From Acidobacteriota bacterium (GTDB lineage: Bacteria; Acidobacteriota; Terriglobia; UBA7540): a stretch of 64,000 bases of DNA. The notes beneath the pieces were generated by a model, which saw only the letters and a program-made list of their open reading frames with translations, made no database searches and was not told the DNA's origin. Location of the stretch: NCBI GenBank assembly GCA_021828285.1, contig JAKASG010000001.1:27326-91325 (forward strand), given 5' to 3'. The translations under genes and the position numbers were made by a program. Below are positions 15,684 to 60,029 of this stretch, piece by piece (positions within the stretch are counted from its first letter, which is position 1; every line of letters begins with the position of its first letter).

Positions 15684-15713
15684 TTGGAATAATACATCGC
15701 AGTATGATACAAT
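15684..15713 (+). promoter_or_regulatory. sigma-70-like promoter with an extended -10 (TTGGAA-N18-TGATACAAT) in an AT-rich island
   Basis: TTGGAA at 15684-15689 and TACAAT at 15708-15713, preceded by TGA. It is followed by a GCGCC/GGCGC hairpin and the marR-like ATG at 15765. Confidence 0.4.
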
Positions 15714-15764
15714 GACTTTCGTCGGGACAGCGCCTGGAAGGCGCCGCACCCCAGGGGCGGGCAA

Positions 15765-16265
15765 ATGGGCAATAGCAAAAATACGGTTGCGGGCTGGAAG
15801 GATTCCCTTCGGGGGGTCGAGGCCGCCGTAGCAGGGTTCAAACCGACGGCGTCCGCCGCGCTCACAAGGCGGCAGGCCTGGTTTCGCTATCAGCTTCGCC
15901 AATTTCTCCATTTCAGCGAGAAAGCCGCGCGGGCCGCAGGATTGACGCGGCAGCAGCACCAGCTCCTGCTTGGCGTTGCCGGCTTTACGGACCGCGGCTG
16001 GGCGACCATTTCAGAACTCGCGGAATTCCTTCAGGAACGTCACAACGCGGTGGTCGGCCTTGTACAGCGGGCGGCGCGCCGCGGATGGATCAGGAAGCGC
16101 GAGATCGCACGCGACCGGCGACTGGTGCGCGTCGAATTGACGCCGAAAGGCAGGACGATCCTGGCGAGGCTCACCCGGCTCCATCGCGACGAACTTGTAA
16201 GGTTCGAGGCGCGCCTCGCCGATTTCACCGCCGGGCGTGACAGCAAAATCAAAGAAGCCAATTGA
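15765..16265 (+). CDS. MarR-family transcriptional regulator
   Basis: 166 aa with a winged-HTH region LTRQQHQLLLGVAG...ISELAEFLQERHNAVVGLVQRAARRGWIRKREIARDRRLVRVELTPKG. Confidence 0.8.
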   Translation: MGNSKNTVAGWKDSLRGVEAAVAGFKPTASAALTRRQAWFRYQLRQFLHFSEKAARAAGLTRQQHQLLLGVAGFTDRGWATISELAEFLQERHNAVVGLVQRAARRGWIRKREIARDRRLVRVELTPKGRTILARLTRLHRDELVRFEARLADFTAGRDSKIKEAN

Positions 16266-16268
16266 CCA

Positions 16269-17675
16269 TTGATCTGGTTCCGAATGAGCCGACCCCCGAA
16301 AGCCGGTTTATTGGATCATCCTCAAGTCCGCAAGTATGCGCGCTTGTTTCGGCGCGATTTCTCGAAAGCTTATTCTCGGGATCTCTTAAAGTGGCTCATC
16401 ATCGGACCGATGATCGGAATCGCCACGGGTGTCGTCACAACGTTGCTCGTCGAGATTATCCTCGTGTGGCTTTGGCCACGCTTGCTCCGGTGGGATTTGG
16501 CGCACGTCGCATGGATCATTCCATTGACAACCCTCGGGTTCGTCATCGCCGGGGTTCTCATGCAGCGCTTCACACCCGACCCCAACGAGCACTCGACCGA
16601 AGAGATCATCCGCTCCTATCACGAACGCTCGGGCAAGGTGGAAATGAAGCCCTACGTGCCGAAGCTTCTCGCGGCGATCGCGACCGTGGGTTTCGGCGGC
16701 AGCGCGGCGCTCGAAGGCCCGAGCATCTATGGAGGCGGCGCACTCGGCTCGTGGCTCTGGACGCGGCTGCGGCGGCTTCGCCTGGATGCCCGCGACCGGC
16801 GAATCATGCTCATCAGCGGCGCGGCCGCCGGCATGGGAGCAGTGTTCCGCGCGCCGCTCACAGGGCTCGTCTTCGCGCTCGAAATGCCTTATAAGGATGA
16901 CTTGGCGCATGAAGCGCTCCTGCCCTCTTTGATCGCCTCCGTCATCTCATACGCCACGCTGGTTTCTTTCGTGGGCCCGAAGCCGCTCTTTTACTTCACC
17001 GGCGTGCACGCCTTTTCCCGGAGCGACTTGCTCTGGTCCGCGCTGCTCGGTCTGCTGATCGGCCTCGGAGTCATGCTCTTCGATTTGACGTATCGGCGTA
17101 TTCGATTATGGGCGATCCGGATCGCGAAGCCTCACTGGATCAAAATGGCCGTGGGAGGAGCGCTAACGGGCCTGTGCGGGGTGATTTTCATTTGGCTGTT
17201 TCCCGGGCAGCTTGTCCCCCTTGGACCGAATTATGAAGCGGCTCCCCTCATTCTCACGCAACATCACAGCACTGCCGAGCTTCTGGTTTTCGGATTTCTG
17301 AAACTGGCCGCAACGATCTTTTCGCTAGGGGTTGGAGGCGTGAGCGCGATGTTCGTGCCTCTTTATATCACCGGCGGAAGTTTCGGCGTAGCCTTCGCCC
17401 AGGCAGTCGTCCACAGCCCGACGATTGATTTGTTCGCGGCGGTCGGAATGGCTTCGTTCATCGCCGCGGGGTATAAAACGCCGCTCGCGGCGGTCATTTT
17501 TGTGGCGGAAGCGGCAGGCGGCCATACCTACATCATTCCCACATTGATTGGCGCCGCAGTCGCCTACGCGGTGTCGGGTGAGGCTTCCGTCTCGGGCGAT
17601 CAGCGCCTGCAGGAACGCGGCGAACCCGTCGAGCGGCCCGTACAAAGCGGAGACTTGATCCAATCCGAAGGGTAG
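16269..17675 (+). CDS. ClC-family chloride channel / H+-Cl- antiporter
   Basis: 468-aa polytopic protein with GFGGSAALEGPS (GxEGP-like selectivity/gating region) and GGVSAMFVPLY (GxFxP). It is almost contiguous with the marR-like gene. Confidence 0.85.
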   Translation: MIWFRMSRPPKAGLLDHPQVRKYARLFRRDFSKAYSRDLLKWLIIGPMIGIATGVVTTLLVEIILVWLWPRLLRWDLAHVAWIIPLTTLGFVIAGVLMQRFTPDPNEHSTEEIIRSYHERSGKVEMKPYVPKLLAAIATVGFGGSAALEGPSIYGGGALGSWLWTRLRRLRLDARDRRIMLISGAAAGMGAVFRAPLTGLVFALEMPYKDDLAHEALLPSLIASVISYATLVSFVGPKPLFYFTGVHAFSRSDLLWSALLGLLIGLGVMLFDLTYRRIRLWAIRIAKPHWIKMAVGGALTGLCGVIFIWLFPGQLVPLGPNYEAAPLILTQHHSTAELLVFGFLKLAATIFSLGVGGVSAMFVPLYITGGSFGVAFAQAVVHSPTIDLFAAVGMASFIAAGYKTPLAAVIFVAEAAGGHTYIIPTLIGAAVAYAVSGEASVSGDQRLQERGEPVERPVQSGDLIQSEG

Positions 17676-57655: not shown

Positions 57656-58228
57656 TCATTTGGGGCGGGGTTTGAGGGAGCGGAGGCTATGACGGATCAG
57701 GTTTGGAACGGCGTGGAAGAAATGTCCGGGCCGGGGAACGACGAGCTTTCGTTTTGGCGCCGCGGCCGCTTGAGAATCACCGAGCAGCCGCAGGACGTCC
57801 GAAGCGGTGACGCGCGCGGCGATGCCGTCAATCGAGGCGTGGGTCACGGTTCGGTCCCGGGCGAGAATGAACATCGCAGGCTTGGCAATACCGCCCTTTT
57901 CACGCGCGTTGTAAACGCCCCACCGCTGCACTACTCTTCGCTCGGTATCGCACAGGATCGGGAACGGCAGACGAAGCTGCTCGCGGATAACCCGCGAATC
58001 TTTTGCTCCGTCCACGGAAATGGCGGCAAGATGAGCGTCCGCGGCGCGGATTGCCGGTTGCAGGTCGCGAAATCCCGCCAACTGGCGGAGACAGAAAGCT
58101 CACCAATATCCTCGATAGAACAGCAGAACGAGTCGCCCTGAATCGCAAAGCTCGGAGAGTCGCCGTGGCGTGCCGTCGGAGTCATGAAGCTCGAAATCCG
58201 GCGCAATTTCGCCGGCCTGTGGAGGCAT
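57656..58228 (-). CDS. peroxiredoxin-like (AhpC/TSA-redoxin family) protein with an in-frame TGA at the first CxxC position: candidate selenoprotein (or, alternatively, a nonsense pseudogene)
   Basis: Manual translation from ATG 58228 gives MPPQAGEIAPDFELHDSDGTPRRLSELCDSGRLVLLFYRGYW-[TGA 58102..58100]-AFCLRQLAGFRDLQPAIRAADAHLAAISVDG...LPFPILCDTERRVVQRWGV.... The track shows only the 3-prime 141 codons (57656..58081), which are in the same frame. An alternative GTG start at 58255 has AGGA upstream. Confidence 0.6.
58043..58089 (-). promoter_or_regulatory. candidate bacterial SECIS hairpin(s) immediately 3-prime of the in-frame UGA
   Basis: In the mRNA, UGA-N11-CCGCC-AGUU-GGCGG (58088..58075) forms a 5 bp stem plus a U.G closing pair, with G at loop position 2. 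An alternative 9-bp stem GGCGGGAUU/AAUCCGC(G)CC (58079..58043) has one bulge. Confidence 0.4.
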
Positions 58229-58454
58229 CTTGCGAGCTGTGAGAGAAGAACTCACCGTTTGTCCTTTTTGTAAAATTCCCTAGAGGCCATTTTATCTCCC
58301 TTCAATAGGTCCGGCCAGCATATCCCCGCGGGCAGTAGAGGCGGCTTCACGCCGCCACGGCCCAATTGGGAAAGGCTCATCGCGCCACGATCCTTGCAAA
58401 GCAAACTTGCCGCCGCAAGAATGCCGGCAGCGCGCGCGTGGGGCGGTTCGCAGG

Positions 58455-60029
58455 CTACGAATGGGAAGAGGATTGAGAGAGCGCGTGGCGGGCGGCCTGT
58501 TCCATCAAGGCGCGGGGGGCGGCGAGGCCGGTCCAGATCTCGAACTGCCGCGCGCCCTGAGCGACAAGCATTTCGATGCCGGAGATGGTGATCATGCCCC
58601 TCCCGCGAGCATCCGCGAGGAAGCGGGTTTCGAGCGGATGATAGACCATATCGAAAACCACGCGGGCGCGCAGCCGCGAGAGGTCGAGCGGCGAGCTTTG
58701 CGGATGAGGCGCCATGCCGACGGGCGTCGCGTTGACCACTGCATCCACTTCAAGCCCATCCACGCTGTCCCACGGAACGATTTGCGCGGAGACGGCGCGC
58801 GCCAGGCGCTTTGCGGCCGCCTCGCGCCGCGCGGCAATCAGAACATTCACGCCTTCGGTCCGCAGAGCATAGGCCGCGGCGCGCGCCGCCCCGCCCGAGC
58901 CGAGAATCAGAATCACGCTCCCGGCAAGACGCAGGCGTTTCGAGACCACCTCAATAATGGCTGCCGCGTCCGTGTTCCACCCCATCCAACGGCCGTGCTG
59001 CACGGCGACGGTGTTGCAAGCGCCGATGCGCATCGCCAAGGGGTCCACCCAATCGAGTTCGCGCATCACGGCCCGCTTGAAGGGCATTGTCACGCTGAAG
59101 CCCGCGAAGCCGAGCGCCCGCGCGAACGCGACGAAATCCCGGAACCGCGGCGTCTCACAGGGCAGATAGACCGCATTGACGCGCTTCGCCTGAAAGGCCA
59201 TATTTTGCATGGCGGGCGATAAGGAGATGGATGCGCGCGATCCAACGACTCCGAAAAGCAGCGAGCGCCGGTCGAGACGGTCCGCCCGGTAAACTGCTCG
59301 GACCACTTCCACGGGCAATTGTCCGGCAGCAACCGCCATCGAGCTTCCGGCGGAGGCATAAGTGAACGCGGAACCCCAGCGCAGCGCCAATAGGCGCGAT
59401 GGAATCCCCGAAGGCCCGAGCCCGAATGCGACCAGCTTCGGTTTGCGCGGGTGATGCGCCTTGAGAAGGCTGTAAATCTTCACATTGTCGCGGAGATGCC
59501 GGGCGTGCGTTGCGATTTTGACCACCTGCGCGTGCGAGCGCGCGAGTCGCCGGTAAAGCGGCGCAAGCGGCGGCGTCTGCCGGTAGTTGTGATGGGAAAC
59601 GATGACCTTCGCCGGCCCAAACTCGTCAATCGCCCCGCCTCCGCTCCGATCGAGCGAGTCCCACTCAAGATCCACCCATTGACAGCCGCTTTGCGCGGCG
59701 GATTTGAGAATTGCAATCTGTTCGGAAACTGTCCCTCGAAACAACCCGCCTGCCCTCGCGCGGCGGCAGGTAGCAATCACCGGCGGAAACCGCAGCGCCG
59801 TGAGCAGGGGACGCAATTGGGTTTCCACCTCTGAAATATCTCGAAGATAATCGAGCCGCAGCTCATAGCCCACGTGAGGAAGTGCGAGTTTGGTGACTAA
59901 GTTCTCCGCCGCCTGCAGGGTTGGGACCGCGAGAGTCACAAAGATTCGCGGAAGTTTCAAAGTCCTGGTCAACGCTGGGTCCGAGTGGCTCCCTTCTTTG
60001 GGTTGCCAATGCGATGAAATATAAAGCAT
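58455..60029 (-). CDS. bifunctional 3-dehydroquinate dehydratase (type I) / shikimate 5-dehydrogenase fusion
   Basis: 524 aa. The N-terminal half is AroD-like (IFVTLAVPT...YELRLDYL...KVIVSHHNY). The C-terminal half is AroE-like (FGVVGSRASISLSPAMQNMAF, ILGSGGAARA, NATPVGM). The exact start is uncertain. Confidence 0.8.
   Translation of the reverse strand: MLYISSHWQPKEGSHSDPALTRTLKLPRIFVTLAVPTLQAAENLVTKLALPHVGYELRLDYLRDISEVETQLRPLLTALRFPPVIATCRRARAGGLFRGTVSEQIAILKSAAQSGCQWVDLEWDSLDRSGGGAIDEFGPAKVIVSHHNYRQTPPLAPLYRRLARSHAQVVKIATHARHLRDNVKIYSLLKAHHPRKPKLVAFGLGPSGIPSRLLALRWGSAFTYASAGSSMAVAAGQLPVEVVRAVYRADRLDRRSLLFGVVGSRASISLSPAMQNMAFQAKRVNAVYLPCETPRFRDFVAFARALGFAGFSVTMPFKRAVMRELDWVDPLAMRIGACNTVAVQHGRWMGWNTDAAAIIEVVSKRLRLAGSVILILGSGGAARAAAYALRTEGVNVLIAARREAAAKRLARAVSAQIVPWDSVDGLEVDAVVNATPVGMAPHPQSSPLDLSRLRARVVFDMVYHPLETRFLADARGRGMITISGIEMLVAQGARQFEIWTGLAAPRALMEQAARHALSQSSSHS

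Follow-up and report, generated by a model that had tools for sequence, protein, structure and literature searches.

Selenoproteins with a peroxiredoxin (Prx)-like scaffold are not new to bacteriology. Prx-like thiol:disulfide oxidoreductases with the PF00578 domain and a UxxC or UxxU motif, in which U is selenocysteine (Sec), have been a predicted bacterial selenoprotein family since 2005-2006 (PMC1794560, PMC13188914). The prototype is a Geobacter protein, WP_010940744.1 (Zhang and Gladyshev; PMC1794560, PMC13188914), an entry for a "Redoxin family protein, UxxC" is listed in a 2026 review, and Acidobacteria have been named as a Sec-decoding phylum (PMC1794560). Here we examine a gene of this type in a 64,000-nucleotide (nt) stretch of an Acidobacteriota bacterium (GenBank assembly GCA_021828285.1, contig JAKASG010000001.1, positions 27,326 to 91,325), hereafter called the window, which had been flagged from its letters alone as a candidate selenoprotein gene. 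That original prediction relied on Prx-like UxxC proteins being established bacterial selenoprotein families, and the literature above bears this out. Judged from its sequence and that of its relatives, the gene is very probably a functional Sec-encoding gene in which an internal UGA specifies selenocysteine. The kind of protein is already known, a Prx-like UxxC selenoprotein, to which the window gene is an uncurated addition.

The window protein has both features by which that family is defined, the PF00578 domain and a UxxC motif (PMC13188914). It shares with the described members the AhpC/TSA fold, a Sec that stands first in UxxC and corresponds to the Prx Thr, and a selenocysteine insertion sequence (SECIS) directly downstream within the coding region, and both were predicted through Cys/Sec pairing. 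Compared by description with the Geobacter prototype, the family to which the window gene belongs differs in being found only in Terriglobia as sampled, in carrying a basic tail of about 45 amino acids (aa), and in a near-invariant hairpin with a 6-bp stem and an AGUU loop. The predicted features of the gene are as follows.

57656..58255, minus strand: complete selenoprotein gene, AhpC/TSA fold with a basic C-terminal tail of about 45 aa (from translation, Pfam and 80 orthologues)
58253..58255, minus strand: GTG, the probable start codon, with AAGGA resembling a Shine-Dalgarno sequence 6 nt upstream at 58266..58262
58226..58228, minus strand: alternative start ATG (from the sequence)
58100..58102, minus strand: Sec codon UGA, first position of the W-U-A-F-C redox motif, TGA in 81 of 81 family sequences
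58091..58093, minus strand: partner Cys codon TGT of the UxxC motif, the Cys occurring in all 81 sequences and aligning with the peroxidatic Cys of Bcp/PrxQ
58074..58089, minus strand: candidate SECIS hairpin UCCGCC-AGUU-GGCGGG, 6-bp stem and 4-nt loop, from the RNAalifold consensus of 81 sequences
57878..57880, minus strand: Pro codon CCT of the near-invariant G-G-I-A-K-P motif, aligned with the catalytic Arg of peroxiredoxins (from alignments to structures)
57656..57658, minus strand: true terminator TGA (from translation; orthologue terminators vary between TAA, TAG and TGA)

The minus-strand frame reads VSSSLTARKMPPQAGEIAPDFELHDSDGTPRRLSELCDSGRLVLLFYRGYW-TGA-AFCLRQLAGFRDLQ and continues to the stop at 57658..57656. 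It holds a single internal stop, in the context GRLVLLFYRGYW-TGA-AFCLRQLAGFRDLQ, and this TGA lies inside the redoxin frame at 58102..58100, exactly where it had been predicted. The mechanical list of open reading frames (ORFs) contains only a 141-aa fragment from TTG 58081 and a 51-codon upstream piece. The prediction that a full redoxin N-terminus lies upstream in the same frame is upheld both by the translation and by a Pfam match that runs across the TGA. As to the 5' end, it had been set at the ATG at 58228, but the true start is probably GTG 58255, which is preceded by the AAGGA element and yields an N-terminal extension that lines up with the MSTSAYPIR-type N-termini of the orthologues. 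Including Sec, the gene spans 199 codons from the GTG and 190 from the ATG. TGA is otherwise an ordinary stop in this genome, since it ends both the redoxin gene itself and the neighboring peptidase gene.

A first argument for recoding comes from conservation. Searching one genome per GTDB species yielded 80 orthologous loci, which together with the window make up a family set of 81 sequences. The orthologous proteins are 49-60% identical to the window protein, and all 80 carry an in-frame TGA at the same column, within FYRG[HNSDYQ]W-TGA-[PA]FC[LVH]RQL (FYRGYW-U-AFC in the window). Their frames are intact on both sides of the TGA and the architecture is common to all 80. The true terminators of the orthologues vary (TAA in 37, TAG in 26 and TGA in 17), and the fixed internal TGA can therefore not be put down to a stop-codon preference; with TGA at this codon in 81 of 81, a chance origin of the pattern is remote. 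Mean pairwise differences at codon positions 1, 2 and 3 amount to 0.27/0.20/0.57 over the 36 codons upstream of the TGA and to 0.24/0.18/0.56 downstream. As the two patterns are alike, both parts must be translated, with the N-terminal piece under the same protein-level selection as the remainder. The window copy retains all 19 residues that are invariant in the family, and most members have the TGA in a UGA-C context. Nearly all of the orthologues are labeled as metagenome-assembled genomes of Acidobacteriota/Terriglobia (Acidiferrales, Sulfotelmatobacter, Acidobacteriaceae, Bryobacterales and Solibacteraceae). Two typical family members, at loci L023 and L067, bear the labels Candidatus Dormiibacterota and Solirubrobacteraceae, all other loci having Acidobacteriota-type labels; these two are probably mis-binned contigs, horizontal transfer being less likely.

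Cys-containing homologues provide the second line of evidence. Three full-length Cys forms (P0002, P0003 and P0005) read FYRGYW-C-AFCLRQL with TGC at the Sec column, and in alignment with them the window UGA falls on the first Cys of the redox motif, just as the original prediction had it. The three Cys-form genes, close relatives of one another, differ at four of the five hairpin codons, and in two of them the hairpin is lost (-2.0 and -4.0 kcal/mol). The third, P0005 (L092 1001..1597), retains CGCC-AGUU-GGCG, a 4-bp remnant of -9.1 kcal/mol, which looks like a fossil SECIS left after a recent Sec-to-Cys replacement. A supposed Trp form, the JGI record P0001 (L081 841..1392), was discarded: its DNA has TGA at this codon, and the product had evidently been translated with TGA as Trp. 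Database entries also bear the mark of an unrecognized Sec codon. A protein search found 325 relatives, and of the best 120 only four fall outside a length of 119-145 aa. When truncated entries were fetched, 36 of 41 proved to start at the TTG seven codons past the TGA, the pattern which gene callers produce on meeting a Sec codon.

Downstream of the UGA, a hairpin CCGCC-AGUU-GGCGG with a G in its loop had been proposed to begin after 11 nt. It is present as described, with an extra U-G pair that lengthens the stem to 6 bp: positions 58089..58084 pair with 58079..58074 around the loop 58083..58080, in which G is the second base. The published bacterial SECIS (bSECIS) model has a loop of 3-9 nt, a stem of 4-16 bp and a G in the first two loop positions (PMC13188914), with 16-37 nt from UGA to loop and a minimum free energy (MFE) of at most -7.5 kcal/mol (PMC13188914). 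The window hairpin stays within each of these limits, with a loop of 4 nt, a stem of 6 bp, G at loop position 2, a spacing of 16 nt and a folding energy (dG) of -10.1 kcal/mol, the range in the family being -7.8 to -11.0 kcal/mol for a fixed 19-nt segment. This stem with its AGUU loop is the sole consensus structure among the 81 sequences, whether 48, 66 or 105 nt around the UGA are folded. The original prediction had also placed an alternative 9-bp stem further 3' within the SECIS distance range; the claim holds for the main hairpin, with its 16 nt to the loop, and lapses for the second stem, which is unconserved and missing from the consensus fold of the 81 sequences. A lower stem that would pair UAUCGCGG upstream with UAUCGCGA downstream was rejected as well, as it does not appear in the consensus fold at any of the three segment sizes.

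Codon usage across the hairpin is more telling than its covariation. Synonymous sites are frozen at codons +4..+8 only, where the first Leu is written CTC or CTT and nothing else, Arg is CGC in 78 sequences and CGT in 3, Gln is CAG and the second Leu TTG in 81 of 81, and Ala is GCG in 77 of 77; invariant Leu, Ala, Arg and Pro columns elsewhere in the gene use 4-6 codons each. Pairwise differences over the hairpin codons come to 0.01/0.02/0.07, third-position diversity thus dropping from 0.56 to 0.07, and the synonymous codons that are never seen are exactly those which would break a pair or alter the G or U of the loop. Across the alignment 99.8% of cells pair, vs. 19-67% when the partners are slid. 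The changes seen in the stem comprise 19 one-sided substitutions, all to G-U or U-G wobble, one compensatory C-G to U-A replacement (L011) and one broken cell. Classical covariation is thin because the helix is almost invariant, and the freeze at synonymous sites is the stronger evidence for an RNA element. A search of the window and 92 loci showed no hairpin of this kind behind a TGA outside the family genes themselves.

The mini-SECIS of E. coli follows an 11-nt rule. In common with the E. coli fdhF SECIS and the bSECISearch consensus, the window hairpin is a stem-loop in the coding region that starts 11 nt past the UGA, has a small loop with G followed by U, and folds with a dG below -7.5 kcal/mol. 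It differs from the fdhF element in being much shorter, with a perfect 6-bp stem, no bulged U and no lower stem, and the primary sequences are unrelated.

The protein itself has been cast as peroxiredoxin-like, which is true of its fold and less so of its catalytic site. With Cys substituted at the TGA, residues 6-130 match Pfam AhpC-TSA (PF00578) at E = 9.6e-26 and 90.6 bits (cutoff 26); this match and a Redoxin one (E = 6.5e-15) both span the TGA. An AlphaFold2 (AF2) model of a Cys-form homologue (predicted local distance difference test score, pLDDT, 88.6), used for the fold comparison, has the peroxiredoxin fold and finds Bcp4, AhpC2, BcpB and AhpE as its best Foldseek matches. In alignments to five structures, Sec coincides with the Thr/Ser of the Prx motif PxxxT/SxxC and the Cys of UAFC with the peroxidatic Cys. 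The window sequence R-G-Y-W-U-A-F-C thus keeps only the Cys of that motif, with Arg in place of Pro and Sec in place of Thr/Ser. The catalytic Arg of peroxiredoxins is likewise absent, a near-invariant Pro standing there instead: the Pro of GGIAKP occupies the Arg position of four Bcp/PrxQ structures (A-K-R) and of the AhpE R116A mutant, its neighboring Lys being invariant and the Pro present in at least 90% of sequences. With both the PxxxT/SxxC motif and the catalytic Arg replaced, the family falls outside the catalytic definition of a peroxiredoxin, so the original description stands for the AhpC/TSA fold but not for a canonical peroxiredoxin. Similarly, the prediction that W-U-A-F-C sits where AhpC/TSA proteins carry W-C-P-x-C was right in placing Sec in the first-Cys column, but WCPxC is the thioredoxin/TlpA motif, that of peroxiredoxins being PxxxTxxC. 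What the motifs indicate is a thioredoxin/TlpA-type signature, W-[C/U]-x-x-C with a Pro opposite the active site. The GGIAKP Pro is presumably a cis-proline, as judged from the thioredoxin fold.

Several described groups bear comparison with the protein. Its nearest solved structures, in sequence (E = 1e-16) as well as in fold (TM-score up to 0.87 on the target), are peroxiredoxins of the Bcp/PrxQ and AhpE types (2cx3, 3hjp, 5epf and 1xvw), whose peroxidatic Cys corresponds to the second motif residue, the Cys, of the window family. It differs from them by the exchange of Pro for Arg, of Thr for Sec and of the catalytic Arg for Pro, and hence lacks the Prx peroxidase triad. PrxU and other Sec peroxiredoxins (TxxU; NF040737) are also selenoproteins on a Prx scaffold, but there Sec replaces the peroxidatic Cys, whereas in the window family it takes the place of the Thr and leaves the Cys intact; NF040737, whose cutoff is 270 bits, gives scores of 23-32 bits. 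The window protein falls short of the cutoff of every NCBIfam model. The best-scoring curated model is that for SelL-related redox protein (NF040769), which resembles the window protein, as does eukaryotic SelL, in its Prx-like fold and in the location of a redox dyad. The window protein reaches 46.7 bits, and two orthologues and a Cys form 47.2-59.1 bits, against a cutoff of 120, so it is not a member, and the SelL motif is UxxU rather than UxxC. With TlpA/ResA (WCxxC and cis-Pro) it shares W-[C/U]-x-x-C and a Pro that precedes the strand facing the active site, a likeness that suggests the same disulfide-exchange chemistry. It differs from these proteins in having no extracytoplasmic anchor, its scores with the ResA model, 36.8-46.5 bits where 170 are required, lie outside that family, and its overall sequence is nearer to Bcp than to TlpA/ResA. 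The translated protein shows no signal peptide, membrane anchor or hydrophobic N-terminus. The conserved basic tail of about 45 aa contains the invariant R160 and P165 (ATG numbering) and is predicted, at lower confidence in the AF2 model, to form a short strand and a helix. A third Cys outside UxxC, at codon +50 past the TGA (about 57950..57952, in P-I-L-C-D-T), is found in 77% of the 81 sequences and could be a resolving or regulatory thiol.

On this evidence the gene product would be a selenoprotein of the cytoplasm, about 199 aa long and built on the AhpC/TSA (peroxiredoxin) scaffold. Ribosomes would decode the UGA at 58102..58100 as selenocysteine, the hairpin 10-11 nt downstream presumably being bound by SelB-GTP-Sec-tRNA(Sec), which would outcompete release factor 2. 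The product would have a thioredoxin-type W-U-x-x-C center, with Sec at the Prx Thr position, the Cys equivalent to the peroxidatic residue, and Pro in place of the catalytic Arg. Such a center makes thiol/disulfide exchange the likely chemistry rather than canonical Prx peroxide reduction. In this exchange Sec may act as the attacking nucleophile, passing through a selenenylsulfide and being recycled by a thioredoxin-like reductant.

The machinery for Sec insertion was sought around the gene and its orthologues. As the original prediction had noted, the window contains no selA, selB, selC or selD, a result now confirmed by tRNA, Rfam, Pfam and tblastn scans: there is no tRNA in the 64 kb and no Rfam family at gathering score, and about 40 window ORFs scanned with Pfam include no SelA, SelB or SelD and are housekeeping in kind (cytochrome bd, FtsH, TilS, EPSP synthase, LepA, SucCD, TrpE/D, prolyl oligopeptidase, AroDE). 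About 8 kb of the contig past each window edge likewise hold no sel gene and no tRNA, and a tblastn search with E. coli SelA, SelB and SelD (approximate queries) against the 955 kb of loci gathered returned only LepA and other GTPases. In two orthologue-bearing species, by contrast, a tRNA-Sec lies on the contig of the gene, less than 6 kb from it (L068 and L075). Both have the anticodon UCA and were detected by ARAGORN as well as with Rfam RF01852 (72 bits, cutoff 47). Two such cases in 80 loci, where about 0.2 would be estimated by chance, hint at a loose linkage with the gene. The tRNA-Sec of L068 (694..790, plus strand) is 5.3 kb upstream of the gene and directly 3' of a GTPase ORF that looks Obg-like by eye, and that of L075 (8855..8949, minus strand) is 2.7 kb downstream.

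Several points weigh against a Sec-encoding gene. With no selA, selB, selC or selD in the 64-kb window or in the roughly 16 kb of extra flank, Sec decoding in the window organism is inferred from the integrity of the gene and from its relatives. The hairpin is short, its 16-nt spacing is the smallest that the bSECIS model allows, and no Rfam family matches it in a search of the locus at E values up to 10. Covariation amounts to a single compensatory change, and the observed score was equaled or exceeded in 17 of 500 shuffles. Enzymatic activity, finally, is deduced from motifs.

These reservations have to be set against the alternatives. A lone in-frame stop resembles a fresh nonsense mutation, and gene callers treat it as such or miss the gene; together with the lack of Sec machinery in the window, this could be read as a redoxin gene killed at its Cys codon. 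Such a pseudogene should have decaying relatives, but none was seen among the orthologues of 80 species, in which the TGA is kept, no other disruption of the frame occurs and purifying selection acts on both sides. Nor are these duplicates of one sequence, given their 49-60% identity to the window copy, which itself keeps the 19 invariant residues and the hairpin. Misreading or misassembly of a TGC or TGT might be suspected, as the window comes from a metagenome-assembled contig, but the same codon recurs in 81 assemblies independent of one another, and this very contig shows it in two independent assemblies. The TGA in 80 of 80 orthologues, the intact frames and the selection on both sides therefore exclude pseudogene and sequencing error, and we would assign the former an exceedingly small probability and the latter a still smaller one.

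Two further explanations accept the TGA as genuine. The locus might be a split gene, with a 51-residue peptide ending at the TGA and a 141-aa protein starting at the TTG at +7, the conserved bases serving re-initiation; that TTG is invariant in 81 of 81 sequences and is the start picked by gene callers. It is not preceded by a Shine-Dalgarno-like sequence, however, and the conserved bases form the hairpin. Moreover, no family member has TAA or TAG in place of the internal TGA even though the terminators vary, this TGA stands exactly at the Cys of contiguous Cys-form homologues, the fold would be cut between strand beta-1 and the active-site helix, and related genomes contain tRNA-Sec. We consider a split gene very unlikely. 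Just as unlikely, in our estimate, is that one of the standard amino acids (Trp, Cys or Gly) is inserted at the UGA through near-cognate decoding, a suppressor or an alternative code. The JGI record P0001, which translates the codon as W, and the leaky UGA-C context of most family members would fit, but TGA is an ordinary terminator in the genome, in the family and in this very gene, Trp or Gly would destroy the redox motif, and the SECIS hairpin, the tRNA-Sec in relatives and the Cys/Sec pair are all present. Recoding of the UGA as selenocysteine accordingly remains the reading we prefer.

Genome context adds little to the picture. None of the nine window neighbors stands beside an orthologue, no neighbor cluster occurs in more than 8 of the 80 loci, and no operon partner was found. 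Directly upstream on the same strand is AroDE, a fused type I 3-dehydroquinase and shikimate dehydrogenase of 524 aa (58455..60029, minus strand); a hairpin resembling a terminator, at 58419..58406, suggests separate transcription of AroDE and the selenoprotein gene. About 5 kb past the right window edge (L090 4408..5892), a 494-aa protein with AhpC-TSA, Redoxin and Thioredoxin_8 matches represents a second large redoxin-type gene on the contig, near a pair of ECF sigma and zf-HC2 anti-sigma genes. No other selenoprotein candidate emerged from the window, in that none of its in-frame TGAs flanked by long open frames lies beside a Cys in a redox-type motif. One single TGA between a MarR-family regulator (15708..16262, plus strand) and a CLC chloride-channel gene (16269..17675, plus strand) in the same frame was considered and rejected as recoding; these are two ordinary genes, since the MarR Pfam match shows a normal gene end. 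The strand opposite the selenoprotein gene carries one further feature.

57689..58141, plus strand: spurious antisense ORF of 150 aa without a Pfam match (from the ORF list and public gene tables)

In both public records of the contig, ENA ERZ27237313 k141_87358 and NCBI DAHYBK010000025.1 of assembly GCA_027389235.1, the antisense ORF is called and the redoxin gene is uncalled (L089/L090 14343..14795).

The conceptual gain from one more such gene is small, as UxxC selenoproteins on Prx and thioredoxin folds have been known since 2005-2006. A Terriglobia-wide subfamily with a minimal, near-invariant SECIS nonetheless appears not to be captured in curated resources. We propose, tentatively and with slightly less conviction than an even call would warrant, that it forms a distinct uncurated selenoprotein family of peat and soil, spread across several Terriglobia orders (Acidiferrales, Terriglobales and Bryobacterales), in which a Prx scaffold has acquired a WUxxC/Pro site and an unusually small SECIS, UCCGCC-AGUU-GGCGGA, and which is truncated nearly everywhere in databases. 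If this is true, the use of Sec in soil Acidobacteria is wider than annotation suggests, and the hairpin is a minimal recognition element of acidobacterial SelB. In at least 80 genomes at species level, and in hundreds of metagenome entries, the gene is represented only by the 130-141-aa fragment, named "peroxiredoxin" or "hypothetical protein", and a family model that includes the U and the 16-nt hairpin would correct such truncated entries. The near-invariant minimal SECIS offers a handle on SelB recognition outside Proteobacteria and Firmicutes, and corrected annotation would mark these Terriglobia lineages as selenium users, which bears on the trace-element ecology of acidic peat and soil.

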